Origin: a virus
Taxonomy: Duplodnaviria; Caudoviricetes
IMG/VR virus record: IMGVR_UViG_2731957960_000004
Location: 822-64,821 of that record
Length of the DNA stretch: 64,000 nt
Strand: one strand, 5' to 3'
The notes beneath the pieces were generated by a model. That model was not told the DNA's origin. It made no database searches and was given only the letters and a program-made list of their open reading frames with translations. The position numbers were made by a program, and so were the translations under genes. Of the stretch, positions 4,568 to 44,302 are shown piece by piece (within the stretch, counting starts at the first letter, position 1; every line of letters starts with the position of its first letter).

Positions 4568-4839
4568 AGAGGCACCCTTTTTGAGTCGAGATGATGAGAT
4601 GAACCGACATGCGCTTCGCATTCGGCGACGGTTGAGAACTTGGGATTGAGGTAGCGATGAAGGCGCTCGGTCGCGTCTTCGTACCGGCCCTGCCGGATCA
4701 GTGAGTCGATCTCTTCGGCGAACACGTTGCCGACCGATGCGAGCCAGCGACGCGCGACCATTGAATCGCCAGCGGACAACGCGGCATGCGCGCGAGCCAG
4801 GGCAGCGAGGTCTTGAGCTACGGCGTCCATCAGTTGCAC
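4564..4839 (-). CDS. Hypothetical phage protein
   Basis: GTGA overlap with clamp gene. Confidence 0.55.
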   Translation of the reverse strand: MQLMDAVAQDLAALARAHAALSAGDSMVARRWLASVGNVFAEEIDSLIRQGRYEDATERLHRYLNPKFSTVAECEAHVGSSHHLDSKRVPL

Positions 4840-5216
4840 TCGATGGATTCGTAGACGATCGTGGAAAGATACTTGGGGTTCGGCAGCGTCACCGGGCCGT
4901 CGATGGCGCGGAGCTTGAACGGACGCCCTTCGGCGACGGCACTATCGAGCGCCGCGTGCATGCCGTTCGACCATCCCCGATCCGTGTAGAAGACCGAGTA
5001 GTCGGCGACCTTGCGCCAAGCGAGACCGAGCGCGATGCCAAGCTCTCGCTCGTCCGGCTTCCCGTCGTTCAGTACCTGAGTGAGAAGAAGGTGCGATGCC
5101 TGCGCGCTCTCGCGGCGCAGGGCGCAGTCCTTAAGGGCGCGACGGGCATAAGCCACGTTCGCGATGATCTGCCCCGCGAAGGGCGATTCCAAAATAACGA
5201 GTTTGATGGGTTGCAT
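4830..5216 (-). CDS. Conserved phage protein, possible nucleoside 2-deoxyribosyltransferase-like fold
   Basis: VILESPFAG...YARRALKDC...ASHLL...GWSNGM pattern. Confidence 0.55.
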   Translation of the reverse strand: MQPIKLVILESPFAGQIIANVAYARRALKDCALRRESAQASHLLLTQVLNDGKPDERELGIALGLAWRKVADYSVFYTDRGWSNGMHAALDSAVAEGRPFKLRAIDGPVTLPNPKYLSTIVYESIECN

Positions 5217-9243: not shown

Positions 9244-9501
9244 GTGTCTGCATATCCCTTTGCCACTCGCTTCATGCTGACCAAGGGCTGTCAGTGCATG
9301 TACTTCTTGCCGGGCGAGTCTGGCATGGCCGGTCTCGTTTGCGGTGCGCCGACAAGGGCCGGCAAGTCGTTCTGCGACGCGCATCGCCGCGAGACGTATC
9401 AGCCGCTCAAAGCGGGCCGCATCTATTTCCGCGATGCGTCGGTGGTGACGTGCGACGACGATTCGGATCACGAACCCGATCTGACGGAGATCGTGTCGTG
9501 A
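9244..9501 (+). CDS. GcrA C-terminal-like Cys/His protein
   Basis: CMY...CGAPTRAGKSFCDAHRRETYQP resembles the GcrA CRWP..CG....YC..H...AYQP domain. Confidence 0.65.
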   Translation: MSAYPFATRFMLTKGCQCMYFLPGESGMAGLVCGAPTRAGKSFCDAHRRETYQPLKAGRIYFRDASVVTCDDDSDHEPDLTEIVS

Positions 9502-10145
9502 AGTTTCCGCTGATCTATGCCGATCCAGCGTGGACCTTCGAGACGTATTCGGAGGAAGGCAAGGATCGCTCGCCCGAGCAGCACTATGACTGCATGACGC
9601 TTGACGAGATCAAGGCGATGCCCGTCGCCGATCTCGCGGCCGACGACTCCGCATGCCTGCTTTGGGCGTGTGATCCGCTGCTCGACAAGGCGTTCGAGGT
9701 TCTGACCGCTTGGGGCTTCACCTTCAAGACGGTCGGCTTCTACTACATCAAGATCGCACGCGGCCTGCGTCCGGTTACAGGCATGGGATATTGGACGCGC
9801 GCCAATCCCGAGATTTGCCTGCTCGGCACGCGTGGCAAGCCGGAACGCCTCTCGAAGGGCGTTCAACGGCTGATCCTCGAACTGACATTTGAAGACAAGG
9901 TCATCCTCGCGCCACGCACCGAGCACTCGGAAAAGCCGCTCGAAGCATACGACCGCATCGAGAAGCTATTGCCCGGCCCGTACCTCGAACTGTTCGCGCG
10001 GCACGCCCGACCTGGCTGGCACCAATGGGGCAACGAAGTCGGCAAGACCGGCGGCACCCCGAACCTCATTCACATGCCCGGCTACCCGGCACGCGCCGTC
10101 GTCGCCAACGACAACTCACTCTTTGGGGGAACCAATGCAGCGTAA
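9498..10145 (+). CDS. MT-A70 family N6-adenine methyltransferase (start GTG 9498)
   Basis: IYADPAW, GMGYWTRANPE, EHSEKP, YLELFAR, GWHQWGNE. Confidence 0.9.
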   Translation: MKFPLIYADPAWTFETYSEEGKDRSPEQHYDCMTLDEIKAMPVADLAADDSACLLWACDPLLDKAFEVLTAWGFTFKTVGFYYIKIARGLRPVTGMGYWTRANPEICLLGTRGKPERLSKGVQRLILELTFEDKVILAPRTEHSEKPLEAYDRIEKLLPGPYLELFARHARPGWHQWGNEVGKTGGTPNLIHMPGYPARAVVANDNSLFGGTNAA

Positions 10146-18062: not shown

Positions 18063-18785
18063 TCAGTACGCCTTGCCGTGGGTGCCGAGACGAGCGGCGT
18101 TGGTGTGATCGGCGCGAGTGGCGTTGTAGGCGAGCTTCGCGGACGCGGCGTCGCCGAGACCGCAACGCTGAGAGCCAGCCAGATCGAAGATACGGAACAG
18201 CGCATCGACCATCTCGACGGTGAAGCCGTCGAACTGCGGCAGCTTGTCGTCGGCCAGACTCTTGCGGTGGGCTTCCATTGCTTCAGACAATTCGCTGACC
18301 GTGAGCATCAGCTTGGTCGGTACGACGAAGCGAGCGTTGCGAAGGTTCTCGCCGGTCGCCGGGTCGATCCACCAATGAGCGTTGGCGTTGTGGATGATCG
18401 CGGTCATCCAGTTGAAGCAGAAGCGGATGGCGGTGGCCGTGTCCTGCATCTCGGCGAGCGCGTCGCTGGCGATGTAAAGTGCCTCCTTGTTGTTGTCGCC
18501 TTCGGAGAGCGTGTCGCGGATCGACACCAACGCGGTGGCGTAGCTGGCCGCGTCGCGTGCGTGCTCGGCGGCGAGCTTCATCGCGTGCATGGCCTGATCA
18601 TCGGCCGCAGCAAGGCCGAGTTCTGCCTTGAACAGCTTGCGCAGGTCGCCCCAGCCGGGGATCAGGACGATGGCGGTCAAGGCCGTGAAGAGCACGGCGA
18701 TCCAGAAGTGGCCGCGAACGAGCGAGTCGAGGACGGTGGAAATTCCGATACCGCCGATGACGAGTGATGCAAAGAGACGAAACAT
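18063..18785 (-). CDS. MazG-like nucleotide pyrophosphohydrolase with N-terminal membrane segments
   Basis: LMLTVSELSEAMEAHRK, EMVDALFRIFDL, KLAYNATR. Confidence 0.7.
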   Translation of the reverse strand: MFRLFASLVIGGIGISTVLDSLVRGHFWIAVLFTALTAIVLIPGWGDLRKLFKAELGLAAADDQAMHAMKLAAEHARDAASYATALVSIRDTLSEGDNNKEALYIASDALAEMQDTATAIRFCFNWMTAIIHNANAHWWIDPATGENLRNARFVVPTKLMLTVSELSEAMEAHRKSLADDKLPQFDGFTVEMVDALFRIFDLAGSQRCGLGDAASAKLAYNATRADHTNAARLGTHGKAY

Positions 18786-21210: not shown

Positions 21211-21640
21211 CGGAGACCGGATCGGTCTCTTCAAGGCTGTCGATCCACGCGACCTTCGTCGCATGGAAACTCGGATCGTCAACAACATCCCCGAATGGCG
21301 CTATCAGGCTGCGGTGATCGCACGCCTGCACGCAATGGAAGACGAAGGTCTGCCAATCGCCTGCGCTGGCGACATGAACCGCGCGAAGCGCAGTCGCCGT
21401 GAGCGGATGGAAGCAAAGGTCACGGGTCTTACCGCAGGCGAGCCCGATGTTCGTGTCTACATGACGCGGGCTCGCCTGCTTAGCTTTGAACTGAAGACGC
21501 CAAAGGGATCGCGCTCGAAGGCGCAACGCGACCGTCACAAGCTGCTCGCCGCTCTCGGCTTCGAGATCATCACCATCAAGGCCACGACGCCGGAAGAACT
21601 GGCCGACCTGGTTGAAGCTGAAGTGCGAGCCCGGCTGTAA
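21113..21640 (+). CDS. VRR-NUC domain nuclease (true start probably downstream of 21113)
   Basis: GLTAGEPD...FELKTPKGSRSKAQ. Confidence 0.8.
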   Translation: MAGRGFGTSPPSSASRKSGPMVGSCRSWASLPDGDRIGLFKAVDPRDLRRMETRIVNNIPEWRYQAAVIARLHAMEDEGLPIACAGDMNRAKRSRRERMEAKVTGLTAGEPDVRVYMTRARLLSFELKTPKGSRSKAQRDRHKLLAALGFEIITIKATTPEELADLVEAEVRARL

Positions 21641-22281
21641 TGCAGATCACGCTCACGCTCACGAAGGGGATGCTCGAACGCCTCGACGCATTGCGCGAGA
21701 GTAGCATCAACACCGCGACCGCGAAGGCGCTGACCTTCACCGCCAAGGACGCGCAGATGGCATTGCGGACGCAAGTCCCAGCCATGTTCGTCATTCGTCG
21801 TCCGTGGATCGTCGGCGGCATTCGCATCAAGCCGGCGAATGGCGGAAACCTGAAGGCGCAGGTCGGCTCAATCGACAAGTACATGGAGCGCCATGTCATC
21901 GGCGCCGGACGTGAGAAGCAAGCAGCCAACAGCCTGTCGATCCGCTCGAAGCGTGGCAGCAACGGCCGTCTGGCAACGGGCGGCATCCTGATCAAACCCT
22001 ACGGCTCGATTGCCAGTGCCCCCGTGCATACGGTGGTGCGTCGTCGTTTGAACCGGATGGAAAACCAGAAGAAGAAGCCGTTTCAGATCGTCTCTGGCGG
22101 TCGGGTCTTCATCGTGCGCCGCAAGGGCAAGGCACGGAAGCCGCTCCAATCCCTCGCCATGCTTCAGAACAGCGCGGACATCTCCGAGAATTGGGACTTC
22201 TTCGGCACCGTTAGCGGTGTCGTTCAATCGCGCTTCCCCCATCACTTCTATCGAGCGGTCGTGAACGCGAGCACTCGATGA
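21640..22281 (+). CDS. Basic phage protein, possible gpZ-like tail completion protein
   Basis: ATAKALTFTAKDAQ...FVIRRPW; Lys/Arg-rich. Confidence 0.5.
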   Translation: MQITLTLTKGMLERLDALRESSINTATAKALTFTAKDAQMALRTQVPAMFVIRRPWIVGGIRIKPANGGNLKAQVGSIDKYMERHVIGAGREKQAANSLSIRSKRGSNGRLATGGILIKPYGSIASAPVHTVVRRRLNRMENQKKKPFQIVSGGRVFIVRRKGKARKPLQSLAMLQNSADISENWDFFGTVSGVVQSRFPHHFYRAVVNASTR

Positions 22282-22360
22282 CGAAAACGACTCCCCCCTC
22301 GTTTGGCGAAGATGACTCGGCCCCCATGAATCGAAATGTGACGAAAACGACTCCCCCCTC
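22279..22360 (+). repeat. 22-bp exact direct repeat with 60-bp period and a degenerate middle copy
   Basis: TGACGAAAACGACTCCCCCCTC at 22279 and 22339; TGGCGAAGATGACTCGGCCCCC at 22304. Confidence 0.9.
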
Positions 22361-22460
22361 CCACGATCGAGGCGCAACCCACGGCTGGCCCTGATCGCAG
22401 TCGTCGCAATCGCCGCCTCAATCGGCCCCGCACTGGCCCGAGCGTGCCAGGACGAATGCG

Positions 22461-22739
22461 GTGGTGAAGATCCCCGACACATCGACTTCTTTGCAGAAAA
22501 TGCAAATTACCCATCGGACGCAGATGTCAGCCCCTACGAGCGAAACCGGCCTGCTTCGCATCAGCGCGCCGCACTTCTGCGCTGGGGCGGATGTCGTTGG
22601 TGGCGTCGTGTGCGGCACTATCGCGCCGATCTTACGCTACATGCGTGGCTGGCCCATCGAGCGCGTCCGCTCGTACTGTCGCTCAATGCGATGGGAGCTT
22701 CTGACTCAAGGCGTGGACCGCGAGGGCCACCACGTTTAA
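22461..22739 (+). CDS. Hypothetical phage protein
   Basis: RISAPHFCAG...APILRYMRGW...SYC motif; start uncertain. Confidence 0.55.
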   Translation: MVKIPDTSTSLQKMQITHRTQMSAPTSETGLLRISAPHFCAGADVVGGVVCGTIAPILRYMRGWPIERVRSYCRSMRWELLTQGVDREGHHV

Positions 22740-23216
22740 ACCTCGCGGGGAAAAAAATTTTTAGGCTACGTTTTTTCCTTACAGCGACGGGCCACTCAGC
22801 CGATCTCGGCGATCTTCCGGCGAAGCTCGTCACCAATCTCGAAAATCGCTGCGCAAAATCTTCTCTCGCCTAGAACGTGCAGGCGATCACGGCAGAGTCC
22901 GACGTTTTTTGCGCGTAGCGCCAGCGGCCAGCGCGCGCGGCCCATAAGCTTTCGGCAATGCCCCGCTACCACGGCCCCGCTTTTCCATACGACATTGCAC
23001 GGGCTTCTAATCGCGTCTGGCAATCGGTCGCCATTCGCGCGCGTCGTTACACTTCGGCCCCCTCGCGGTTGCAGAATGCGACAACGCGTCACAGCCTTGT
23101 GAAGACGCGCGCGGCCGTTATCGCCGCACAAATCACGCGGCGAACTATCCGACTCGCGCCAGTAGCGGCGCATTGCTCCGAATCCTTTCGCTCGACTCGC
23201 CTAGCGGCGCATAGTG

Positions 23217-23250
23217 AAACGGCCCCGCAATTGCCTGCGGAGCCGTTTTC
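23217..23250 (-). terminator. Terminator closing the leftward small-gene block
   Basis: GAAACGGCCCCGCA...TGCGGAGCCGTTTTC hairpin. Confidence 0.65.
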
Positions 23251-23266
23251 TATGCGTCGTGGTTCG

Positions 23267-23590
23267 TCACGCGTTACGGATGGTGATTAGGCGAGCCGAA
23301 TACGTCACCACGGCATGCGAGCCGCTAAAGGTCTCCGCGACCTGCGCGCCAGTCACGTCAATAATTGGCTTGTCACCTTTGCCGCTAACCGTGCCGCGCT
23401 CCGCGCGCGTTAGCTCATTGAATTGCGACTCAGTGCAGACGGACAGGGTTAGAGTCTTGTCGCTCCATTCGCGCTTGAATCGCTTGCCGACCGTAAAGCC
23501 TACGGCCGCGAGCCTAGCGCCTTCAATCCAAATGCGAGTCCGCTCGCCTGCTTTTGTGGTTCCGAGTTTAGTCTTGAAAGTGTCGGACAT
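23267..23590 (-). CDS. Hypothetical protein, possibly AbrB-like
   Basis: AGGA SD; RIWIEGARLAAVGF. Confidence 0.65.
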   Translation of the reverse strand: MSDTFKTKLGTTKAGERTRIWIEGARLAAVGFTVGKRFKREWSDKTLTLSVCTESQFNELTRAERGTVSGKGDKPIIDVTGAQVAETFSGSHAVVTYSARLITIRNA

Positions 23591-23630
23591 TGTGATTCCT
23601 ATTGTGTCGATTGATTGCGAGGGGGGATGA

Positions 23631-24140
23631 TTAGGCTTTGCGGTGCTTTTGCACGTTCAAGACAAGATAACGGCCGTTACGGTGGAGTCCTTCGTACCAT
23701 CCACGACTCGCTATTCCGTGCCGCAGGTCTGACTCGTTGTGTCCGAATTGGAATCCGCCGGTTGCGTGAAAATTGCGGATCAACTCGCCTAGCGCCATAT
23801 CGGCCCCGGCTTCGTTGTCGCTTGCGTAATCGACGCGCGTTGCATCGGACGACATGCGAGACTCAACAAAGCCAACGATGGCTTGCCAGTCATCCGCCCA
23901 AAACAAATCGCGCAGATTGTTGTCTGCCGACTCGTCAATCGCGCAAACGTGGAATCGTAGCCACTCTGGAAATTCGCGCTCTTCCGGCTTCGGATAGTCG
24001 CACCAAATGACAAGCTTTGCGGCTTCGTTCGTAAACGACGGGCAAACGTCATTGCCCCATGATGAATCGACAAAGCCCGCCGGCATGGCGGGCATTTGGT
24101 CCGGCGGATAGTCTTTAAACTCAATCCTAAAATCAGCCAT
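23631..24140 (-). CDS. Hypothetical early protein
   Basis: Start MADFRIE with AGGA SD; FVDSSWGNDVCPSF motif. Confidence 0.65.
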   Translation of the reverse strand: MADFRIEFKDYPPDQMPAMPAGFVDSSWGNDVCPSFTNEAAKLVIWCDYPKPEEREFPEWLRFHVCAIDESADNNLRDLFWADDWQAIVGFVESRMSSDATRVDYASDNEAGADMALGELIRNFHATGGFQFGHNESDLRHGIASRGWYEGLHRNGRYLVLNVQKHRKA

Positions 24141-24212
24141 TGGCTTGCATCCTGTTAGAAGCGAGTCCCCTTGGAATGTCCGATGGAAGGGACAGGGGAC
24201 TCGCAAATGGGT

Positions 24213-24443
24213 TTAGCGGTTGTGATCGCGGTTCAAGCGGCTTCGATCCGCGAGCGTCTTAGGCTTGCGCAATGCCTCTTCAAGCAATTGCGTTGTGTAA
24301 ACGTCTTCAATGCGGACAACGGAAAAATGCCGCTGGCGATCATTCGCGGCGCAAAGCCTTTCGGCTTCCGTCTTCGCTGGATCAAACGCCGCAAAGTTTC
24401 CAGTTAGTTCGCCCGTGGCGATATCGCGGATTCGGAATTGCAT
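24213..24443 (-). CDS. Hypothetical early protein
   Basis: AGGAG SD. Confidence 0.6.
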   Translation of the reverse strand: MQFRIRDIATGELTGNFAAFDPAKTEAERLCAANDRQRHFSVVRIEDVYTTQLLEEALRKPKTLADRSRLNRDHNR

Positions 24444-24525
24444 TTAGTGACTCCTATGTTCTGAAGGCGTTGGGCTCTTCAGTGACGGCACAACCGCCAG
24501 ACGACGCGCACCGCGTCGTTTCGCC

Positions 24526-24804
24526 CTATGCCATCCAACCGGGAATCCGCTTGTAGACTTTGAAGCGATAGCCGAAGGGGGCCGACTCTAGCTCGCGCTT
24601 TAGGCTTTCGTATTCTGCGGGAGTCGCGGGCCGCGTTGTCGCGTACCACTCGCGCGAGCAACTGCCATGCTGCCCGATATGCGCATAGCAACCCATAAGA
24701 TTGCCGTTGTCGATTTCGCGAGGGAATACGGCAGTAACTTCGCCTTTGTGTGGGCCGCGCTTGTCCGCGCGGAATAGGACGGCCGTCAATGGTTCGTCAG
24801 ACAT
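24526..24804 (-). CDS. Hypothetical early protein
   Basis: VTAVFP...CYAHIGQHG...ATPAEYESLKRELE. Confidence 0.65.
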   Translation of the reverse strand: MSDEPLTAVLFRADKRGPHKGEVTAVFPREIDNGNLMGCYAHIGQHGSCSREWYATTRPATPAEYESLKRELESAPFGYRFKVYKRIPGWMA

Positions 24805-24820
24805 GGGAATCGATCCTGAT

Positions 24821-24922
24821 TTAGAGCGGAGTGCAGGCAATGCCCGCAACTGTGACAACGAAGGCGATGCAAAGTGCGACAAAAACAGCGCGCGCTAGTT
24901 CGACGGCATAAACCTGAATCAT
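24821..24922 (-). CDS. Small membrane peptide
   Basis: MIQVYAVELARAVFVALCIAFVVTVAGIACTPL; ATGA overlap with upstream gene. Confidence 0.45.
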   Translation of the reverse strand: MIQVYAVELARAVFVALCIAFVVTVAGIACTPL

Positions 24923-25206
24923 TGCGCGTCGTCCTCCGCATATGCGGACGCGATCCGCTTGCCCGTATGATCGCAGAACAGACTCGAGTCTTCGTAATTG
25001 ATGGCAACCGCCACGACTCGCCATCCGTCGTTAGACTTGTCGCGGATGGATTCCAGAATGTTGCGGCGTTCCTGCTTCGCTGCTTCAAACGAAAGCGCGG
25101 CCCCGTCACTTGTGACGAAATAGAGCGGATAACCGCCGGGCCATGCATAGGGGCCATTGCGAACGGCCGCGCGAAAGTCTGCGATTGAGTTGATTTGCAT
25201 CGACAT
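24919..25206 (-). CDS. Hypothetical early protein
   Basis: YAWPGGYPLYF...INYED..LFCD...IASAY. Confidence 0.7.
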   Translation of the reverse strand: MSMQINSIADFRAAVRNGPYAWPGGYPLYFVTSDGAALSFEAAKQERRNILESIRDKSNDGWRVVAVAINYEDSSLFCDHTGKRIASAYAEDDAQ

Positions 25207-25215
25207 TGCCGGGCC

Positions 25216-25845
25216 TCAATAAATCGTCTGCACAAACATGACGGTTGCGGAGCGATACGGATAAAAGGCGAAGCCATCGCCATGCGACTCCAAACGGCCG
25301 CGTACGGCGTTGAGTCCCATTGCAAGCTTTGCGGCTCGCATGATTTGCCGGTCTGTCGCGCCAACCGGGAGAGTCAGAGTCTCGCGCTTAACCCAGCAAT
25401 AATTGGCTTCGCCTCCGAAAGTGTCCGTATACTCAACGGACATTTGAAAGGACTCCGCGCGCTTCACTTTTTGGACGCGGGCATAATCGCCAGAGCTAAC
25501 AAAATATGTGCCGTGGTATTCGTCGCCACTAATCGCGGCAATCCGCACCGCAATGCGTTTGCCTCCGAAATTGTCGCGATATTCGCGGCCAAAGGTAACG
25601 CGGCCCAAAACTTCGCCCGTCCAAGTCGTCGCGACTCCCTTTTCCCGGTTGATATAAAGGAAGTAGCGCGCGGGCTTGTCGCGCAGAAACTCAAAAACTT
25701 CTAGCGCGCTCCGCTCTTCATTCGTTGGCGGGATGATATCCGCCGGCAATTCTGACGGATGGTAGCTAGTGCGATTGCCTAACCAATTGCGGAGCGCGGT
25801 TTCGCGGTTGCGGATGGCGACGGCGGATTCTGCGGAGAGTGTCAT
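25216..25845 (-). CDS. Hypothetical early protein, possibly two fused domains
   Basis: Start MTLSAES with AGGA SD; TTWTGEVLG and EYTDTFGGEANYCWVKR blocks. Confidence 0.65.
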   Translation of the reverse strand: MTLSAESAVAIRNRETALRNWLGNRTSYHPSELPADIIPPTNEERSALEVFEFLRDKPARYFLYINREKGVATTWTGEVLGRVTFGREYRDNFGGKRIAVRIAAISGDEYHGTYFVSSGDYARVQKVKRAESFQMSVEYTDTFGGEANYCWVKRETLTLPVGATDRQIMRAAKLAMGLNAVRGRLESHGDGFAFYPYRSATVMFVQTIY

Positions 25846-25891
25846 TTGCGGGAGTCCTGATATCTGAAGAGGGATTGAGATTTGCGCGGGC

Positions 25892-26344
25892 TTAGCGGTG
25901 GTAAATCCAACCGCGCCACGTTTCGCAGTAGGCTTCGCCGAAAGCGCGAGCCGCGTTCTGCAATGCTTCAAGGCATGCCGCGTGCCCGTCGTCTGTGAAG
26001 CCAACGCCATGACCCTGACGGGCAAACCAAAAGAGATTGCCGAGTCTTTCGTCGTTTAGTTCGTTGCGGCCATAGCGAAAGCCTTCGGAGCCCGGCTCTA
26101 ATTCCATCGCGGCCGTTAAGTGTGCTTCGTTGGCTTGCCAGAACGCGGCGCAATCCTTTGCGAGGTCTGCGATTGCCGCGCGCGTAAGACGCGCAACGCC
26201 TAAGCGGTTGAGTCTGTGTTCGTCGTTTTCTTCGCCAATGTCGCCATTGGTGAAAAACATCGCTTCTACATAACCCTTTGCGAAATCGCTCAACGCGTCA
26301 TAGCTGCGCGGGGCTGGAACGTCGTTTAGAACAAACTGCGGCAT
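25892..26344 (-). CDS. Hypothetical early protein
   Basis: FAKGYVEAMFFT...LFWFARQGHGVGF. Confidence 0.7.
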   Translation of the reverse strand: MPQFVLNDVPAPRSYDALSDFAKGYVEAMFFTNGDIGEENDEHRLNRLGVARLTRAAIADLAKDCAAFWQANEAHLTAAMELEPGSEGFRYGRNELNDERLGNLFWFARQGHGVGFTDDGHAACLEALQNAARAFGEAYCETWRGWIYHR

Positions 26345-26347
26345 GGC

Positions 26348-26587
26348 TTAGGCTTCCATCCAAGGGGCTTGCACGTTGTCGAAAAGGTAGGCTTTGCAGT
26401 CTTCAGCCATCGCAGACGCGGCGGGGCCGTCATCCTGTTCGGGGCAATCGGTATCGACCAGATCGCCGTTGCTATCGAAATCGAACCAATAAGCGCGCGT
26501 GCTGCGAAGCGTGCTGCATGGCCACGCTGCATTGAATGCAGCGACTTCATTGCGTGAGGCGATAACCTTGCGGCCAATGATTTGCAT
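26348..26587 (-). CDS. Hypothetical acidic early protein
   Basis: Start MQIIGRK with AGGAG SD. Confidence 0.6.
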   Translation of the reverse strand: MQIIGRKVIASRNEVAAFNAAWPCSTLRSTRAYWFDFDSNGDLVDTDCPEQDDGPAASAMAEDCKAYLFDNVQAPWMEA

Positions 26588-26598
26588 TGCGCGCGCTC

Positions 26599-27006
26599 CT
26601 ATTCGCCGAAATAGAAAACGGCGGAATAGGCGAGCAAGATTGACTCGACGTTCTGCGAATTGCCGGGAGTCCAACGAGTCCAGCCCGTGAACCAATCCTG
26701 ATATTCGATGAAAGCGGACTCGGGCTCGCAATAGTCGCTTAGTTCGCCGCGAATGCGCACCGCAGGCCCGCCAGTGCAAAGCAAGATTGTGTATTCTGCC
26801 GGGCTCGAGTCTTCCTTATTGCCGGGGCTGTACCAGCCGGACCGCACTTCGACGCTTAAAGCGTCTTCGTTGATCCGCTCGCGGGCCTCATTCTCCGCGC
26901 GATCATTGCCGGCCTTTTCGGCGAAGCGGAGCGCGGAGACCATTTCCACGATTGAATGGAATTGAGCGATTGCCTGCGATAGTCCGCCATCGTTGCGCGT
27001 TGTCAT
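26599..27006 (-). CDS. Hypothetical early protein, first gene of the block
   Basis: LSVEVRSGW...ILLCTGGPAVRIRGEL...EYQDW. Confidence 0.7.
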   Translation of the reverse strand: MTTRNDGGLSQAIAQFHSIVEMVSALRFAEKAGNDRAENEARERINEDALSVEVRSGWYSPGNKEDSSPAEYTILLCTGGPAVRIRGELSDYCEPESAFIEYQDWFTGWTRWTPGNSQNVESILLAYSAVFYFGE

Positions 27007-27014
27007 GTCCGTTT

Positions 27015-27115
27015 GCCTTTCGTCCGTTGCTAGCGACGGGCCATCCGTCGTTAGACAGTCCATAACGGACTAAGACCGGAATCGTCAAATGATTTCGGAG
27101 GATGGCGACGGACGA
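27015..27115 (-). promoter_or_regulatory. Promoter/operator for the leftward block
   Basis: TTGACG on minus strand (27083-27088) amid several ACGGA(C/T) repeats. Confidence 0.55.
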
Positions 27116-27445
27116 AACCGGCAAGGCGCCGGATAATGCGGACCAGGTTGCACCTAAACCGGCTTACGAGCGCAGAGCCAAGCAATATCAATAGCTTAGA
27201 TCATTTCGCGCAAAGCGATCGAGCCGCGCAGACGCAAGCGAAAGCGAACGAAACGCGCAAAGCGAACCGCATTCAACACATTGATATCATTGGGGAAAGC
27301 GGTCTGCGCTGGGCTCCGCGGCGCGGGCCATACAACCGCAGGTTATATCGCATGCGATCAAACGATAAGCGCGAAGCACAAGATTATTCTATGAGACTGA
27401 GCAAAGCGTGAAAAATGTTCTGTCAAAGCGGCGTTTGAGGGAAAA

Positions 27446-27490
27446 AGGTACTTTCGAGGGGGTGTGGGGTGCGGGTGACGCGCGACCGTC
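27446..27490 (+). other. Putative cos region (cosQ/cosN-like)
   Basis: AGGTACT-TTC...GCGGGTGACGCGCGACC resembles lambda GGGTCCT-TTCC...GGGCGGCGACC in layout; lies upstream of Nu1/gpA-type terminase. Confidence 0.55.
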
Positions 27491-27703
27491 CACCTTTTCT
27501 AGATACGAGAGAAAAAAGGGTACTTTCTGTTCTCAGCGCAGGGTTGCAACCTTGAGGCCCGAGAAGGGCCAGAAGCGCCGAAAGGGCCTATTTTCCGGTC
27601 TATGACCGGATTTTCATCCGTTGGGATCAAGGGATATTCAAACGCACTCGAAAGAAACAATACCGATTGAGACCGTATAGCTCTCAACGGGAGCTTTCGT
27701 TTC

Positions 27704-28306
27704 ATGATCGTCGTCGGCCTCAAGGGGCTTATTGGGTCTGGCAAGACCACTGTCGCTCGTCACCTCATCGAAAAGCACGGTTTCGTCCGTGGGCGCTTCG
27801 CTGGCGCTCTGAAGGACATGCTGCGCGCCTTCTTGCGCTATCGCGGCTGCGATGAAGCCACCATCGAGCGCATGATCGACGGCGATCTGAAGGAAGAGCC
27901 GTCCGATTGGCTCAACGGCAAGACGCCGCGTCACGCGATGGAGGGCCTTGGCAAGCCTTGGGGCCGCGACTGGATGTCTCCCGACCTCTGGATCGCGACC
28001 GAGACCGACAAGCTCTGGATCGAGCAGCCCGAGCGCGTCCTGTTCGAGGATTGCAGGCACGCGAACGAAGGCGTCGCCATCGAGCGCATGAACGGTCGCG
28101 TTTGGGAGGTCTGGCAACCCGGTTTGGTGCCGAAGGATCAGCCGACCGAGCGGTATCAGGTCGAAGTCAGCGCGTCGGCGGTGATCGTGAACAAACTCGG
28201 CCGGCTCGATGAAACGATGAAGCAGGTCGATGACCTCGTTGCTCGCCTCGTTGCGAGGGCCACCATTGGCCTGCCGCCGATGCAAACCCAGCCGGTGCGG
28301 CCGTGA
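27704..28306 (+). CDS. Deoxynucleoside monophosphate kinase-like protein
   Basis: GLKGLIGSGKTT, FAGALKDML, TPRHAME.LG..WGR, DCRHANE. Confidence 0.85.
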   Translation: MIVVGLKGLIGSGKTTVARHLIEKHGFVRGRFAGALKDMLRAFLRYRGCDEATIERMIDGDLKEEPSDWLNGKTPRHAMEGLGKPWGRDWMSPDLWIATETDKLWIEQPERVLFEDCRHANEGVAIERMNGRVWEVWQPGLVPKDQPTERYQVEVSASAVIVNKLGRLDETMKQVDDLVARLVARATIGLPPMQTQPVRP

Positions 28307-28536
28307 AGATTTCGCAGGCATATGACTTCGAGCGCCTTCTGAAGGCCCGAGACGAACTGAAGGCGGCGCATCGCGTCGCGTCGCACGGCGAAGGTCTCGG
28401 CATCACGATCAGGGGCTCCTACCAGGACAAGGAGATGATCGAGGCGGTCAAGGCCGCCGTCGTCGCCGAGTTCGACCGTCGCATCGCCGCCGTTGATGCG
28501 AAGCTGATCGCGCTGGGCGTCGAGATCGACGAATAG
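28303..28536 (+). CDS. Hypothetical phage protein
   Basis: Coupled to both neighbours. Confidence 0.6.
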   Translation: MKISQAYDFERLLKARDELKAAHRVASHGEGLGITIRGSYQDKEMIEAVKAAVVAEFDRRIAAVDAKLIALGVEIDE

Positions 28537-28537
28537 C

Positions 28538-29074
28538 ATGGGCAAGATCGTCAACCGGCAAGAGCTTGCCGACCTGTTCGGCTACTCGCTGCCGACCATC
28601 TCCGCATGGATCGAAGACGGCCTGCCGGTGGAAACGCACGGCGGGCGCGGCAAGCAGTTCGAGTTCGATACCGAGAAGTGCCTGAAGTGGCTTCTCGCGC
28701 GCGAGCGTGCGCTTAGGAAGGCGGAAACGGCCGCGACGATGAATGACGGCAGCGAGCCGATCACCATCGAAAAGGCGCGGCTCCGTCACGAAGTAGCAAA
28801 GGCGAAGACGGCCGAAATCGAACTCGCGCAGAAGATGGAGCTTGTTCGCCCGGTCGCAATGATCGCGCGCGTGCTCTCGAACGAGATCGCCAACGCGCGT
28901 GCTCGCCTTCTCGCGATCCCCTCGAAGTTTCGCCCGACGATTCATCTCGCGGTCGGCACGCAAGAGAAGACCCAAAAGCTCGTCAACGAGTTGGATCGCC
29001 TGATCCGCGAGGCGCTGACCGAGATCAAGTCGTTCGCCGACGAACCTTCGAAGCCAGAAGAAGAAAATGTCTAG
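28538..29074 (+). CDS. Terminase small subunit (Nu1-like)
   Basis: VNRQELADLFGYSLPTISAWIEDGLP, FDT, KARL. Confidence 0.9.
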   Translation: MGKIVNRQELADLFGYSLPTISAWIEDGLPVETHGGRGKQFEFDTEKCLKWLLARERALRKAETAATMNDGSEPITIEKARLRHEVAKAKTAEIELAQKMELVRPVAMIARVLSNEIANARARLLAIPSKFRPTIHLAVGTQEKTQKLVNELDRLIREALTEIKSFADEPSKPEEENV

Positions 29075-29260: not shown

Positions 29261-31207
29261 ATGGATATCATCGCCGTCCTCGACGAATATGATCTCGACC
29301 CGGCGCATGAAGAGAAGCTTCGCGCGACGGTGCGGGAGATCATTGCCCAAAGCTTCAGCCCGCCGCCGAAGCTGACGGTCTCCGAATGGGCGGACGAATA
29401 CCGTATCCTCTCGCCCGAAGCGTCCTCCGAACCCGGCAAGTGGTCTACGTCGCGCGTAGAGCCGTCGCGCGGCATCATGGACGCGTTCGCCGATCCTGAC
29501 ATCGAGATCATCACCTGTATGGTCGCGGCGCAGACGGTGAAGACCGAAGTCATCAACAACGTGGCTGGCTTCCACGTCCATCTCGATCCTTGCCCGATGC
29601 TCATTCTGCAACCGACGTTGCAGATGGCCGAAGCATACTCGAAGGATCGTCTCGCGCCGATGATCCGCGATACGCCGCAGCTTGCGGCGAAGCTCGGCAA
29701 CCACGCGCGCGACTCCGAAGACACGATCCTTCACAAGAAGTATCCCGGCGGTCATATCACGATGGCCGGCGCGAACTCTCCTGCATCGCTGGCGTCGCGT
29801 CCGATCCGCATCCTGCTCTGCGACGAAGTTGATCGCTATGAGGCGAGCGCCGGCAAGGAAGGCGACCCGGTTTCGCTCGCTATCGAGCGAACGACGACGT
29901 TCTGGAACCGCAAGATCGCGCTCGTCTCGACGCCAACCATCAAGGGCGCGTCGCGTATCGAGTCCTCATATGAGGAAAGTGATCAGCGGCGCTTCTTCGT
30001 CAACTGCCCGAAGTGCGGACATCTGCAACACCTTCGCTGGAAGCAAGTCCGCTGGCCCGAAGGCGCTCCGCTCGAAGCGAAGTATCATTGCGAGTACAAC
30101 GACCCGACGACCGGCGAACTCTGCGATCACGGATGGGATGAAGCCGAGCGACTTCAGGCCATCGCTGGGGGCGTGTGGCTCGCAACGCGGCCCGAGATCA
30201 AGGGCCACGCCGGCTTCCATCTCAACCGCATCGCTTCGCCCTGGCGCGCGCTTGGCGAGATGGCGCGCGACTTCGTGCTCGTCAAGAAGCATCCCGAGCG
30301 TCTGAAGACGTGGGTCAACACGCGCCTCGCTGAGACGTGGGAGGATCGCGGCGAGCGCGCCAACCCGGATTCGATCTATGGCAGGCGCGAAGAGTATGAC
30401 GCCACCGAAATCCTTCCGAGCGGCGTCGGCGCCATCACGGCGTCGGTCGATATTCAGGATGACCGCTTCGAGATCGAGTGGCAGGGCTGGGGTCAGGACG
30501 ACGAAAGTTGGTCGCTCGACTACAAGGTCTACTATGGCGACCCGAACTCTCCCGGTTTTTGGGAAGTGCTCGACCATGCCTTGATGCGCACATTCCGGCA
30601 TCCGGCCGGTGTTGACATGCGCGTCGAGGCGACGTGCATCGACTCCGGTGGTCACTTCACGCAACAGGTCTACAACTTCGTTCGGCCGCGCCAGATCAGG
30701 AAGGTCTACGCCATTAAGGGCATCGGTGGTCCCGGCCGTCCGATCTGGCCTGCGAAGGGCACGGTCAACAAGGCGAAGAACGTGACGGTGTTCGTGCTGG
30801 GCGTTGATCAGGCCAAGGATGTCCACTACAAACGCCTTGGCGTGAAGGAGCCCGGTCCCGGCTACTGTCACTTTCCGAAGATCGAGCCGCCTTATGACAA
30901 GAAGCACTTCGAGGGTTTGACCGCCGAAAAGGCGATCCTGAAGACCGACAAGAAGGGCTTCACGGTCAAGGAGTGGCACAAGGTCCATCAGCGCAACGAA
31001 CCGCTCGACGTGCGTGTCTACGGAATCGCGGCGCGGCTCTCGCTCGGCATCAACATGGAACGGCGTCTCGGCGCGTTGCGTGCTGCCGCGTCTGCGACTC
31101 TCAATCAGGCCCCGCGAGCGGCCATGTCCGGCCCGGCGGAAGAGCCGACCCCGGCACCGGCCGGCACCGGCCGGCGTCGTCTTCGCTCACGCGGCGTTGA
31201 AAGATAG
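29261..31207 (+). CDS. Terminase large subunit (lambda gpA family)
   Basis: TVSEWADEYR, AQTVKTE, LCDEVDRY, STPTIKG, IDSGG, RNEPLD. Confidence 0.95.
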   Translation: MDIIAVLDEYDLDPAHEEKLRATVREIIAQSFSPPPKLTVSEWADEYRILSPEASSEPGKWSTSRVEPSRGIMDAFADPDIEIITCMVAAQTVKTEVINNVAGFHVHLDPCPMLILQPTLQMAEAYSKDRLAPMIRDTPQLAAKLGNHARDSEDTILHKKYPGGHITMAGANSPASLASRPIRILLCDEVDRYEASAGKEGDPVSLAIERTTTFWNRKIALVSTPTIKGASRIESSYEESDQRRFFVNCPKCGHLQHLRWKQVRWPEGAPLEAKYHCEYNDPTTGELCDHGWDEAERLQAIAGGVWLATRPEIKGHAGFHLNRIASPWRALGEMARDFVLVKKHPERLKTWVNTRLAETWEDRGERANPDSIYGRREEYDATEILPSGVGAITASVDIQDDRFEIEWQGWGQDDESWSLDYKVYYGDPNSPGFWEVLDHALMRTFRHPAGVDMRVEATCIDSGGHFTQQVYNFVRPRQIRKVYAIKGIGGPGRPIWPAKGTVNKAKNVTVFVLGVDQAKDVHYKRLGVKEPGPGYCHFPKIEPPYDKKHFEGLTAEKAILKTDKKGFTVKEWHKVHQRNEPLDVRVYGIAARLSLGINMERRLGALRAAASATLNQAPRAAMSGPAEEPTPAPAGTGRRRLRSRGVER

Positions 31208-31553: not shown

Positions 31554-31760
31554 ATGGCACAGAGCGTCGAAGAACAACTCGAACAAACCCTCGAATCGAT
31601 CCGTCAGGTCGAGAAGAGCGGCCAGCGTTACACGATCAAGGATCGTGAGCTTTGGCGTGGCGATCTGAAGGTTCTCGACAAGCGCGCCGAGCGCCTTGAG
31701 CGAGCGAGTGCGCGTGCCAAGAATGGCGGCGTCAAGATTCAGCGGATCATTCCGCTGTGA
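31554..31760 (+). CDS. Head completion protein (gpW-like)
   Basis: GQRYTIKDRELWRGDL; directly before portal. Confidence 0.75.
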   Translation: MAQSVEEQLEQTLESIRQVEKSGQRYTIKDRELWRGDLKVLDKRAERLERASARAKNGGVKIQRIIPL

Positions 31761-33373
31761 TGAAGCCCCTCGCGCCCACGTTTACGGATCGCCTTCTGGC
31801 GAGCGTCGCGCCAACCTTCGCGCAGCGCCGCTACCATGCGCGCCTGTCGCTCAACCTTATGGGCCAGTATGCCGGCGCGAAGTCGAACCGCGCTGCGCTG
31901 AAGACTTGGCGCACCAATCCCGGTTCGGCCGACGCTGACACGCTTGGCGATCTGCCGACGTTGCGCGCTCGATCGCGCGACCTCGGCCGCAACAATCCTA
32001 TCGCTACCGGCGCTCGCTCGACCTCGAAGAGCAACATCGTCGGCACCGGCCTGCGCGTTCGCTCGAAGCTGAATGCCAAGCTGCTCGGTCTCTCCGAAGA
32101 AGCCGCCGAAGTTTGGGAGCGCAACGCGGAGACGCTGTTCGATCTTTGGGCGCAATCCAAAACCGCCGACATCACGCTCACGCAGAACTTCTATGAGCTT
32201 CAGGGGCTCGTCTTCAACACGGTGTTCGAGTCCGGCGACACGTTCGTCCTGCGGCGCACGCCGAAGCGCAAGACCATCGTCCCGCTCGCGCTCAATGTGA
32301 TCGAGGCCGACCGCGTTGCCACGCCGCAAGAGAAGATGGGTGACTACTACATCCGCGACGGCGTCAGGATCGACGAAGATGGTGCGCCGGTTGGCTACTA
32401 CATCCTCAACGACCATCCCGGCGACTCGCCGACCTATGCGCAGTACGGCTACAAGGAAGTTGCGGCGTTCGGTGCGAAGTCCGGCGAGCAGATGGTGCTC
32501 CATGTGTTCGAGCGCCTTCGGCCTGGCTTGAACCGTGGCATCCCGCAGCTTGCGCCTGTCATCGAAATCCTGAAGCAACTCGACCGCTACAGCGAAGCCG
32601 AGTTGATGAAGGCCGTTGTGTCGTCGTTCTTCACGGTCTTCCTGAAGACCGAAGGTGACGACGGACTCGCCAGCGCCACGCAGGGCGCATTCCCCGGCAT
32701 GGGTGCCAACGAGATCACGATGGGGCCGGGCACCATCGTTGACATCGGGACCGGCGAAGACATCCAGACCGCGCAACCGGCGAACACGTCCAACTTCGAT
32801 CCGTTCTTCACGTCCGTCGTGCGCCAGATCGGCGTTGCGCTGCAAATCCCGTTTGAACTGCTCATGCTGCACTTCACGGCGAGCTACAGCGCCTCGCGTG
32901 CGGCCTTGGAGATGGCGGCGCAGTTCTTCCGCGACCGGCGCACTTGGCTTGTCCGCGCCTTCTGTGCGCCCGTGTACGAATGGTTCATGGCCGATGCGAT
33001 CAACGCTGGCCTGATCGTCGCGCCCGGCTTCTTCAATGATCCCATTCGTCGCGCCGCTTGGCTCGGCTCGCAATGGATCGGCCCGGCTCGCATCATTCTC
33101 GACCCGCTGAAGGAATGGAAGGCTGAAGCCGAAGCCGTGAGCCTTGGCGCTCGCACCATCGAAGCCGTGATCATCGAGCGCGGTGGCGATGACTTCGAGC
33201 AGACCACGAAGCAGCGCATCCGCGAGCACAAGGCGCGTGCCGCCGGCAAGCTCGAACCCGAAATCCTCGCCCCGGAAGGCACGGCACCCCCGCCGCCGAC
33301 TGACGAGAACGGCGGCGAAAAGGGCGGCAGTGGCAACAAGCCGAAGCCGGCACACAACGAGGACGACGAATGA
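31757..33373 (+). CDS. Portal protein (lambda family)
   Basis: LRARSRDLGRNNP, RGIPQLAPV, SYSASRAA, IDP-like ILDPLKE. Confidence 0.95.
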   Translation: MMKPLAPTFTDRLLASVAPTFAQRRYHARLSLNLMGQYAGAKSNRAALKTWRTNPGSADADTLGDLPTLRARSRDLGRNNPIATGARSTSKSNIVGTGLRVRSKLNAKLLGLSEEAAEVWERNAETLFDLWAQSKTADITLTQNFYELQGLVFNTVFESGDTFVLRRTPKRKTIVPLALNVIEADRVATPQEKMGDYYIRDGVRIDEDGAPVGYYILNDHPGDSPTYAQYGYKEVAAFGAKSGEQMVLHVFERLRPGLNRGIPQLAPVIEILKQLDRYSEAELMKAVVSSFFTVFLKTEGDDGLASATQGAFPGMGANEITMGPGTIVDIGTGEDIQTAQPANTSNFDPFFTSVVRQIGVALQIPFELLMLHFTASYSASRAALEMAAQFFRDRRTWLVRAFCAPVYEWFMADAINAGLIVAPGFFNDPIRRAAWLGSQWIGPARIILDPLKEWKAEAEAVSLGARTIEAVIIERGGDDFEQTTKQRIREHKARAAGKLEPEILAPEGTAPPPPTDENGGEKGGSGNKPKPAHNEDDE

Positions 33374-40426: not shown

Positions 40427-41108
40427 TAGCGGCCGAGCGGGCTTGGCCGGCGCCTTGCGCGCGCGCCCGATGTTCTTCGCGTGGGGCCGTGGTGCCTCTT
40501 GGTGGGGCGCGACGGATGTCGTGAACAAGACCTTCGCCGGGTCGCCCGAGCGCATCACGCTCGATCACGCCCCGGTGGCGTCACTGACCCTGCGCAACGG
40601 CGAAAGCGCGCAGGTCTATCAGTCGCCCGCCGACTACACCTATGACAACAACACGGGCGTCGTCACGCGCGTCAACGGCGGCGCTATCTCTGCGGGCTCG
40701 ACGGTGCAAGCGCAGGTCGTCTACGGCACTACGCCGCTCTCCGCATCCGACACCGGCTTGGTCAGCGAAGTCGGCCGTCGTCAGGCCGCGTCCGTCGAGT
40801 TCGTCAATCCCGATCCGAACGGCACCATCAGCACGCCGGGCGGTAATCGGTGGACGGTCTCGGTCACGCCGACCCGCTACCTCTATGTGCAGGTCTTGTT
40901 CGACTACCTCGAAGCGCAGACCGAAACGATCCGCGAAGTCGGCATCTTCGTCGATGGCACGCGCAAGGCGGGAGTGCCTGAAGGGCAACTGTACTTGACT
41001 CCCGAAGAAGTCGATCAGCCGGGATACTTGCTTCTGCTCGACCGCTTCGCCGGCATCGCTCGCTCTCCGAGTTCGCGGCAAGGCTTCTCATACGTTTTGG
41101 TGATCTAA
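40410..41108 (+). CDS. Baseplate/tail-associated protein
   Basis: MALLVNSGRAGLA, FAWGRG, EVGRR, TIREVGIF. Confidence 0.7.
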   Translation: MALLVNSGRAGLAGALRARPMFFAWGRGASWWGATDVVNKTFAGSPERITLDHAPVASLTLRNGESAQVYQSPADYTYDNNTGVVTRVNGGAISAGSTVQAQVVYGTTPLSASDTGLVSEVGRRQAASVEFVNPDPNGTISTPGGNRWTVSVTPTRYLYVQVLFDYLEAQTETIREVGIFVDGTRKAGVPEGQLYLTPEEVDQPGYLLLLDRFAGIARSPSSRQGFSYVLVI

Positions 41109-44100: not shown

Positions 44101-44302
44101 GGCCGCTGGCCTCCCGGTGTGGTCGGCAGTGACGCTTGAGAAGGCCACGCCGCTCGGCGACGGCTGGGAAGAGCGGCAGTACATGATCGACCACGTCAAC
44201 AGCAACATCTCGCGCGCGAAGGTCGTGATCACGGGCGGTCCCGCTGCTCGGTCCAACGTTCGCAACATCCGCTGCGTCGCAGTCCAGTCCACCACGGGTT
44301 AA
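41108..44302 (+). CDS. Large baseplate/virion protein (DUF4815-like)
   Basis: 1064 aa; ARYDRE..GGYVV.G, GVFVDP, DPVAQTF. Confidence 0.75.
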   Translation: MADARDNLPAYINTFNRAKGFQRLAAHYDRFLTSNEINVIQDIDADRVKQIADAFWRDGSLVSGGAIVLGPIVNATVEARLAAAKVYIRGAVHDIEARNLVVSAVGTIVIGIRLRTYTLTFEDDVTLKGMAPGTRAQGEPGASALVMKGRWGFEGDGEEGDFFPIHTITDGTIDTPGEPGIDDAWANLLARYDREAHGGYVVDGFKVQALGMDAGKQVFTVSEGTINVYGYKRTRPASYRLRVTENPEIILIDDEPHAVNSGAQTIVVRFAPIAEIVECTIIAEKTVTLTHGAYTGVSDALPDPTVLSISDVRQGGTVYTQTTDYKLAGAAIDWSPTGAEMAPGSTYQITYRYLTNAVPTNIQRDRFNITGAADGTVAYVKYRTKLPRYDAVVVDQAGVISYLEGISSLYAPQVVQVAPTLVKLADVFNNWGLVPTVRQVGTVRMPYSDLRSLEGMVGDLYALVAEERLQRDVDRKEVTAKRGVFVDPLLDDDMRDQGITQTGAIFSGKLWLPITPTVTTLPVAPTTLSYTSENVFEQRQITGETKINPYSSFGPPPTDVTLNPSVDLWTETRDVWTSIQTARQVGWGGVLWAQTQEFQDRVVSNITTEIETIRQRSVGFTINKWGFNEVLTKVTFDDIDVTPAGVIRADANGTLVSSFQIPAGVPVGVKHVGFEGFGGSKCNALYTAYGWLTTVTNERNVITTNYWYNPDPVAQTFRLQEPRQVLGVDVKFTKIGDRNKPVRIQIREVELGIPTERVVAESVLDMHGVTAIDPLSTAPRLESHWTFAAFDRPTTLREDRNYAITVLTEDAIHSVAIADLGGFDQINGWVTSNAFPLGTFLDGSDARTWLPKPGRSLTFRLRVAKYAPATRTIEVGEVTVTNCSDLMPLLVAERPENTAIEVEFEAPNGAKYVTGPAVNIQLPSAITGTLKVRLRMIGTAALSPLMVPYIQVVAGSIQSEGDYVSRAFEAGTDSKIRVILDVYLPSTSTLTAQVQTSEAAGLPVWSAVTLEKATPLGDGWEERQYMIDHVNSNISRAKVVITGGPAARSNVRNIRCVAVQSTTG

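Follow-up and report, generated by a model that had tools for sequence, protein, structure and literature searches.

A GASTC island beside the predicted cos site of a lambda-like Bradyrhizobium phage points to an undescribed DNA-level signal

The 64,000-nucleotide window analyzed here (IMG/VR virus record IMGVR_UViG_2731957960_000004, positions 822 to 64,821) comes from a lambda-like phage and sits in a 290-kb contig of an 8.47-Mb Bradyrhizobium genome. Its positions 22740-27130 hold a block of small leftward genes that is unusually rich in GANTC, the recognition sequence of the CcrM adenine methyltransferase. We divide GANTC into GASTC (GAGTC or GACTC, central G or C) and GAWTC (GAATC or GATTC, central A or T). 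Only GASTC is in excess in the block; the excess arises at the level of the DNA rather than of the encoded proteins and it recurs at the same place in related phages. This GASTC island points to an undescribed DNA-level signal. The explanation we favor, with moderate confidence, sees in the block an accessory operon of mosaic content that belongs to a lambda-like temperate Bradyrhizobium phage and lies at its cos-proximal end. GASTC would be under positive selection there, and the resulting array would be read by a factor which discriminates the central base, its likeliest use being that of a tag.

A first-pass annotation made from the sequence alone had reported about 46 GANTC sites between 22895 and 27083, and exactly 46 were counted, with starts from 22895 to 27079. 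The comparison figures it gave were also reproduced, namely six sites in the 3.2-kb gene at 41108-44302 and nine copies of CTAG in the block (32 in the remaining 59.6 kb). Dinucleotide-preserving shuffling of 22740-27130 gave 19.2 ± 4.0 GANTC sites (1000 shuffles, shuffle maximum 34), and the window as a whole is depleted of the motif (197 seen versus 366 expected from dinucleotide shuffles). The annotation had called for a codon-preserving shuffle, and the excess survives it. After the start codons of nine open reading frames (ORFs) had been refined from their Shine-Dalgarno contexts, these ORFs contained 34 GANTC sites versus 16.8 upon synonymous-codon shuffling, the maximum across 400 shuffles being 24. 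In 4-kb windows of the 8.47-Mb genome the mean count is 7.9 (standard deviation 3.5); the block reaches 42 and the next independent region 22, making the block the densest GANTC stretch of the host genome.

The excess is not one of GANTC in general, as had been proposed, but is confined to the GASTC subset, where it is real and stronger than first stated. The 46 sites of the block split into 33 GASTC and 13 GAWTC. The nine ORFs contain 26 GACTC/GAGTC sites versus 8.7 expected from synonymous shuffling (z 7.5), the most deviant of the 512 reverse-complement-collapsed 5-mers (runner-up z 4.1), whereas GAWTC stood at expectation (8 versus about 8.1). Over the block plus its spacers (22282-27703) 37 GASTC sites were found versus 7.5 expected, and the first-order Markov observed/expected ratio (O/E) was 4.74 for GASTC and 0.85 for GAWTC. 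The corresponding ratios were 0.40 and 0.26 in the phage structural genes, 0.54 and 0.28 in the phage early genes, and 0.29 and 0.47 in the host genome. By 4-kb window the block has a GASTC O/E of 5.57, and every other window of the 8.47-Mb genome has 1.30 or less.

The arrangement of the sites indicates that selection acts on duplex DNA, since all three reading frames are used, the strands are balanced and codon choice depends on context. The 26 coding GASTC sites fall in frames 1, 2, and 3 in the numbers 11, 6, and 9, and the ratio of GAGTC to GACTC is 13:13 on the coding strand of the ORFs and 16:17 on the plus strand of the block. Glu-Ser pairs are encoded as GAG-TCN in 9 of 12 cases, while GAG makes up 35% of Glu codons; Ser following Asp or Glu is encoded by TCN in 14 of 16 cases versus 30 of 51 elsewhere; the rare codon ACT stands in the context G_ACT_C in 7 of its 17 occurrences; and 6 of 21 NGA codons are followed by CTC or GTC versus about 3% expected. 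A cause at the protein level, by which Glu-Ser, Asp-Ser, and similar pairs would yield GANTC as a by-product, is scarcely credible in the face of these data and is already largely refuted. Although some sites do lie on conserved ES or DS dipeptides shared by homologues, the synonymous shuffles keep the amino-acid order and the excess stays, 15 of the 26 coding sites are in frames 2 and 3, and homologues elsewhere have the same dipeptides without GANTC.

The balanced orientation also argues for a symmetric reader of duplex DNA and against RNA-level or Chi-like signals; a Chi-like recombination hot spot was ruled out by the 16:17 strand balance together with the depletion of GASTC in the host. 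No longer motif surrounds the sites, as among 223 pooled sites G or C is no more than slightly favored at the flanking positions -1 and +1. Repeats were likewise ruled out as the source of the block sites because the site contexts are unique, the exception being three 22-nt direct repeats at 22279-22360, which fall outside the coordinates first given for the block and of which two are identical and the third is 73% identical. The blocks of relatives likewise start with two or three closely spaced GASTC sites.

As the first-pass annotation had remarked, the word usage of the block is unlike that of the rest of the phage, with a GC content of 0.56-0.58 versus 0.60-0.64, low GC at third codon positions, and distinct k-mer usage. 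These properties, including the many unusual words, are what would be seen if the cassettes came from a pool having other word usage, for example from phages of hosts with a GAWTC-only CcrM, and GASTC were merely not avoided. CcrM homologues of GAWTC specificity do exist, and their genomes deplete GAWTC but not GASTC (PMC8919816), a polarity that the blocks of relatives show. We nevertheless consider such compositional hitch-hiking very improbable. Neutrality would give an O/E of about 1 rather than 4.7-5.6, and the excess not only survives synonymous shuffling but is built from context-specific codon choices. Moreover, among 25 contigs outside the lineage that carry a homologue of the block gene g5 (Table 1) none exceeds a GASTC O/E of 1.6, and the closest outside relatives of g1 and g3, which lie on contig L015, show no enrichment (peak O/E 0.86). 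Homologues of g5, g8, and g9 even occur in contigs without any GANTC in up to 20 kb (e.g., L036). Because homologues of the block genes are found elsewhere without enrichment, the island is tied to a place rather than to a gene family.

Two further observations concern words that are missing. In the nine ORFs (23267-27006, 3.4 kb coding) AGGGC/GCCCT, CCAGG/CCTGG, and ACCCG/CGGGT are all absent versus 7.9, 5.5, and 5.3 expected, which may reflect restriction-site avoidance. Five IMG/VR phage contigs with g5 homologues (L017, L018, L022, L024, and L036) are devoid of GANTC over 5-20 kb, against an expectation of about 15-75 sites, and five others (L023, L025, L026, L032, and L040) have almost none. 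Such total avoidance is the opposite extreme to the island.

Relatives were collected by searches with the terminase large subunit (TerL) and comprised Bradyrhizobium prophages and IMG/VR contigs at 81-91% TerL identity. Of 42 TerL loci, L064, L065, L066, and L069 were dropped as duplicates of L056, L051, L050, and L053 (identical profiles), a TerL identity below 80% excluded L057 and L080-L089 as distant, and L058, L060, L070-L073, L076, L077, L079, and L090 were not used for want of upstream sequence. In the 16 relatives retained the flanks are syntenic and enclose a variable leftward block made up of differing sets of g1-g10 homologues plus unrelated genes, so that gene content is highly mosaic and hypervariable among close relatives. 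GASTC was strongly enriched in five of these blocks (z 3.9-6.9), mildly in seven (z 1.4-2.5), and depleted in four (z -1.7 to -2.8), and some site positions are conserved among homologues while others are particular to this phage. GAWTC falls short of expectation in every one of the 16 (z -1.3 to -3.7). Three relatives are complete, and in these the enrichment is confined to the bins next to cos (2.5, 3.9, and 1.8/1.3 versus 0.1-1.2 elsewhere). A further locus, L075, has no left boundary gene and does not count toward the 16; it has 5, 8, and 3 GASTC sites per kb upstream of cos.

A comparable island was found in an unrelated phage. In the right-terminal 8 kb of the Rhodobacter phage RcMcDreamy the GASTC O/E is 2.35 and 6.34 (0.18-0.99 in the remainder of the genome) and the GAWTC O/E is 0.85-1.02. 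This segment consists of small diverse genes including a g3 homologue, and its site contexts are unique. The RcMcDreamy ends have been mapped to 12-nt 5' overhangs, the right end being described as the variable one (PMC8601537). No island was seen in CcrBL9 (first 50 kb), RHph_TM3_3_3 (50 of 53.6 kb), phiLM21 (50 of 50.8 kb), or RcKemmy, and in Lacusarx (right 50 of 130 kb examined) the right end is relaxed to an O/E of 1.0-2.2 and no more. Given this mixed presence among relatives and other phages, the island is recurrent but not universal. The literature searched yielded no account of a phage with an island of GANTC or GASTC, the supplements, including the O/E tables of PMC8919816, not having been seen.

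The packaging module to the right of the block is lambda-like: the P-loop protein gene, a small ORF, Phage_Nu1, GpA with its ATPase and nuclease domains, a lambda-family portal, and an S49 protease follow one another. The annotation had placed a lambda-like cos at 27446-27490. Within this interval a 17-bp core (27471-27487), with variable sequence around it, is unchanged in 14 of 17 relatives, also matches short stretches in four further genomes of the family, and is flanked by three 19-nt repeats; these features support the predicted cos. The block lies between the late-region genes and this core, which it adjoins on the side opposite the terminase genes, and its genes point away from the core. 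In lambda the end upstream of cos is packaged last and ejected first. By analogy with lambda-type packaging polarity the block would lie at the last-packaged, first-ejected end.

The spacer between the block and the packaging operon contains no motif sites at all: the 570 bp of promoter/cos spacer at 27130-27700 have zero GANTC. The promoter and terminator that had been assigned to the block are candidates only, as promoter-like consensus matches (including 27414-27386) number 2 versus 2.4 expected in shuffles and the hairpin at the left end is on a par with shuffled sequence in its folding (z 0.15). The other three of the 17 relatives, L053, L056, and L061, have extra sequence between the accessory block and the packaging operon with an apparent additional ORF, possibly HNH-like, and this ORF within the sampled stretch places their cos core upstream of the 323 bp sampled. 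Just upstream of the P-loop gene, a leader at 27640-27700 (GGGATA..CTCGAAAGAAAC..GAGACCGTAT...) is highly conserved in 17 of 17 aligned relatives and is a possible regulatory element or RNA of the late operon.

Genes for a CcrM-type methyltransferase and for four GcrA paralogues are present in the host, all of them outside the window. In B. diazoefficiens 99.8% of GANTC sites are reported to be methylated by CcrM (PMC4840208), and thus the GASTC sites of the block are very probably CcrM substrates. The four GcrA-family ORFs score above the Pfam cut-off (at C1:288565, C170:285341, C158:3905, and C113:97271 on the host contigs) and provide several candidate readers of methylated GANTC. The first-pass annotation had proposed a generic CcrM leading region that arrives already methylated and either masks restriction sites or recruits GcrA-RNA polymerase to early genes. 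The place and orientation of the block beside the cos core, the CcrM and GcrA paralogues of the host, a GcrA-dependent prophage operon in Brevundimonas (PMC7987155), and the importance of early-injected regions in restriction escape (PMC12455610) all accord with this model. However, we consider it unlikely. GcrA-type control works through sites in promoters (PMC7987155); here GANTC is absent from 27084 to 28938, the spacer included, the site closest to the promoter-like match lies about 300 bp downstream of it, and the sites are intragenic and in all frames. An array of CcrM targets of any central base should include GAWTC, which is at expectation in this phage and below it in all 16 relatives. 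As regards masking, only 3 of 46 sites overlap TCGA, so that an overlap with TCGA-type restriction sites was rejected, no common overlapping word was found, and the documented route of escape is absence of the motif from the leading region, not its excess (PMC12455610).

Methylation by the phage itself was also considered. Neither a GcrA nor a CcrM-family methyltransferase is encoded in the 64-kb window. The phage carries replication and recombination genes and two methyltransferases, one of which is an MT-A70 adenine methyltransferase (Table 1). Its presence was rejected as the cause of the island since it occurs in 8 of 8 relatives rated at least 90% complete by CheckV, whether or not they have an island; in the two incomplete records it was not matched. 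It has no homology to phiLM21_p027, which is experimentally GANTC-specific (E 2.4). The second methyltransferase-like gene (phrog_1008; 1531-2658, minus strand), together with a DUF7768/nucleoside 2-deoxyribosyltransferase-like gene (4830-5216, minus strand) and a pyrophosphatase-like gene (18063-18785, minus strand), could point to nucleotide or DNA modification. A 1047-residue Type ISP restriction-modification enzyme (56588-59731, minus strand; Type_ISP_C, ISP_coupler, N6_Mtase, and Eco57I domains) occupies a stretch of lower GC directly after the lysis genes and may be prophage-borne or at the prophage border.

In a quite different rival, the sites would be cut or nicked by an enzyme specific for GAGTC, either one resembling PleI/MlyI/N.BstNBI or one encoded by the phage. 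The resulting nicks or breaks would stimulate recombination, which would account for mosaicism in the lineage being concentrated in the block. That only sites with a central G or C are in excess fits GAGTC being read on either strand, the gene content of the block is indeed highly mosaic, and the phage carries Sak4-like, Cas4-like exonuclease, and VRR-NUC-like genes. GASTC is also scarcer than GAWTC in phiLM21 (L104; about 0.1 versus 0.26), RHph_TM3_3_3 (L093; about 0.07 versus 0.25), and the host (0.29 versus 0.47), which hints that, in addition to a general avoidance of GANTC, some negative pressure acts specifically on words with a central G or C. Against these points, no such nuclease was identified in the phage. 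The RE_AlwI family (PleI/MlyI/BstNBI) is unmatched in the host, although the control genomes were unmatched too, making that result uninformative. On balance we regard the nuclease explanation as decidedly unlikely.

The favored reading, an array read by a discriminating factor, gains over generic CcrM/GcrA action from two of the results above, namely that A/T-centred sites are not enriched and that the promoter/cos spacer is free of sites. GASTC would be positively selected in the DNA of the block independently of the encoded proteins, and the sites would form a dense recognition array on duplex DNA for a symmetric sequence-specific factor that tells a central G or C from A or T. As CcrM substrates they would normally have N6-methyladenine in both strands, a mark that replication would remove step by step. 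The likeliest use of the methylated array would be as an epigenetic tag on the block operon that distinguishes unreplicated incoming or prophage DNA from replicating DNA. Several points weigh against this reading. We know of no GASTC-specific reader. GAWTC is equally methylatable but is not enriched, so methylation alone cannot be the selected property. No helical or other periodic spacing of the kind expected from cooperative binding was found in 140 inter-site distances, and the island is not seen in 4 of 16 relatives or in 4 of 6 other alphaproteobacterial phages examined. Finally, neither CcrM nor GcrA is reported to distinguish the central base (PMC3287173, PMC7987155), and in the GcrA data G and C are not favored at that position (PMC7987155).

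A more specific version, which we advance only tentatively, is that some alphaproteobacterial cos phages have an "epigenetic leading region", a first-entering coding island of G/C-centred CcrM sites. An unnamed host or phage factor would read the methylated array, either turning the accessory, possibly anti-defence, operon on in freshly injected DNA and off after replication or shielding the DNA. The reader in such a scheme could be a GcrA paralogue with a central-base preference, and the scheme would apply independently in two groups, the Bradyrhizobium lineage and the Rhodobacter RcD phages.

Table 1 Positions of the block, its genes, and other features of the window
Feature	Position	Strand	Evidence or remarks
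GASTC island, leftward accessory operon of small genes	22740..27130	-	Shuffle tests, Markov O/E
g1, 135 residues, 5 GASTC sites	26599..27006	-	Homologues 71-83% in L061, L062, L067
g2, 79 residues	26348..26587	-	GANTC-free, as are its two homologues
g3, 150 residues, phrog_1915	25892..26344	-	RcD phage gp85 homologue; AlphaFold2 pLDDT 91.7, no PDB match
g4, 209 residues, phrog_22729, 7 GANTC sites	25216..25845	-	AlphaFold2 pLDDT 89.6, no significant PDB match
g5, 95 residues, phrog_18452	24919..25206	-	Widespread viral family, NGPYAWPGGYP motif
g6, 92 residues	24526..24804	-	
g7, 76 residues	24213..24443	-	Shine-Dalgarno AGGAGTC includes a site
g8, 169 residues, 8 GANTC sites	23631..24140	-	
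g9, 107 residues	23267..23590	-	
g10, doubtful long ORF	22796..23173	-	Only C-terminal ~60 residues conserved in L061, L062, L067
Three copies of 22-nt repeat, each with GACTC	22279..22360	+	Directly after stop of 21640-22281 gene
phrog_1924 protein	21640..22281	+	Left boundary of variable block in relatives
P-loop (AAA_18-like) protein	27704..28306	+	Opens rightward packaging operon; bounds variable block on the right in all relatives
Terminase small subunit, Phage_Nu1	28538..29074	+	PF07471, E 1.6e-13, 51.1 bits versus cut-off 30
Terminase large subunit, GpA	29261..31207	+	ATPase/nuclease domains: PF05876 E 1.4e-82, PF20454 E 8.4e-84
Portal protein, lambda family	31757..33373	+	PF05136, E 6.1e-95
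Conserved cos core GCGGGTGACGCGCGACC, candidate cosN	27471..27487	.	Conservation in relatives
Three 19-nt GAGGGAAAAAGGTACTTTC-like repeats, candidate terminase-binding sites	27406..27527	+	Flank cos core
Sigma-70-like consensus match	27383..27414	-	Weak evidence; could drive leftward operon
MT-A70 adenine methyltransferase, ~216 residues, DPAW motif	9495..10145	+	Core gene of lineage

The ten small leftward ORFs first proposed for the block are given in Table 1; nine are well supported and the tenth is probably shorter than drawn. Sites do occur in ribosome-binding regions, as had been claimed: GANTC at 23594, 24449, and 25852 lies within AGGA-type Shine-Dalgarno contexts, and sites at 23180 and 24807 lie just upstream of start codons. 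No function could be assigned to any of the gene products. None of the ten ORFs matched Pfam and none scored above noise in NCBIfam (the sole match, g5, had 13.5 bits versus a cut-off of 290); PHROG matches were to unnamed families only, and the "DNA ligase" label of the g5 family was rejected as implausible for a protein of 95 residues. A PDB sequence search with g5 gave nothing meaningful, the protein atlas placed g5 and g3 in unnamed viral clusters only, and Foldseek searches with the confident g4 and g3 models found no PDB match at E ≤ 0.001. In the VIA wide search with g4 the best Z was 6.6 (AcrIE2 Z 5.6), below the stated noise level of the tool, and no conclusion was drawn. The first-pass annotation had put the block genes forward as anti-defence candidates. 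This is a guess, consistent only with position and variability; Pfam, NCBIfam, and PHROG revealed no recognizable anti-defence gene among the ten ORFs, no dedicated anti-defence library having been searched.

Discussions of short methylation motifs in the genomes of bacteria and phages nearly always treat them as words to be avoided. In the present case a single word family is both avoided, about three-fold across the genome, and accumulated, about five-fold within an operon of 4-5 kb; related phages plus one unrelated phage with mapped genome ends display this pattern too. If the sites act through methylation, the island would be a coding-region methylation island used by a virus, and would offer a handle on the timing or protection of first-entering genes in rhizobial temperate phages. 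The restriction to a central G or C suggests a discriminating factor in Alphaproteobacteria beyond the known CcrM and GcrA, and the stronger depletion of GASTC than of GAWTC in the host, phiLM21, and RHph_TM3_3_3 runs in the same direction.

Among known systems, clusters of the Dam site GATC serve as cis-acting epigenetic devices at the P1 pac site, in SeqA sequestration of oriC, in IS10, and in control of Mu mom. As in those clusters, a short methylatable palindrome is locally far above expectation in the block, and its fully methylated, hemimethylated, and unmethylated states could report replication history. However, Dam clusters span tens to a few hundred bp of non-coding DNA and have known readers, whereas the block has about 37 sites over about 5 kb of coding DNA and involves only the central-G/C subset. 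Lambdoid morons lie between the late genes and cos, and the block resembles them in being cos-adjacent, of foreign composition, opposite in orientation to its neighbors, and mosaic in content. To our knowledge morons do not carry a selected oligonucleotide signature, and the block differs from them in its selected GASTC signature and in having only candidates for a promoter and terminator of its own. With CcrM/GcrA regulation (PMC3667746, PMC7987155) the block shares a motif that is a subset of the CcrM site and a host having CcrM and GcrA paralogues. In contrast to that system as those reports present it, with sites in promoters and no central-base preference, the promoter region of the block is free of sites and the A/T-centred sites show no excess. 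In plasmids and phages, the leading or early-injected region is reported to carry anti-defence genes (PMC11541004, PMC12455610). Like such regions, the block is a variable set of small genes; it lies at the end that is expected to go in first, and its genes are oriented along the direction of entry. The phage leading region described in PMC12455610 lacks the restriction motif, whereas the block accumulates its motif and has no recognized known anti-defence gene. Lastly, motif depletion tracks methylation in Alphaproteobacteria (PMC8919816), and in the avoidance of GANTC throughout their genomes and phages, as in the block, the same word family is under strong selection; in the block the sign of that selection is reversed, and for the G/C-centred subset only.

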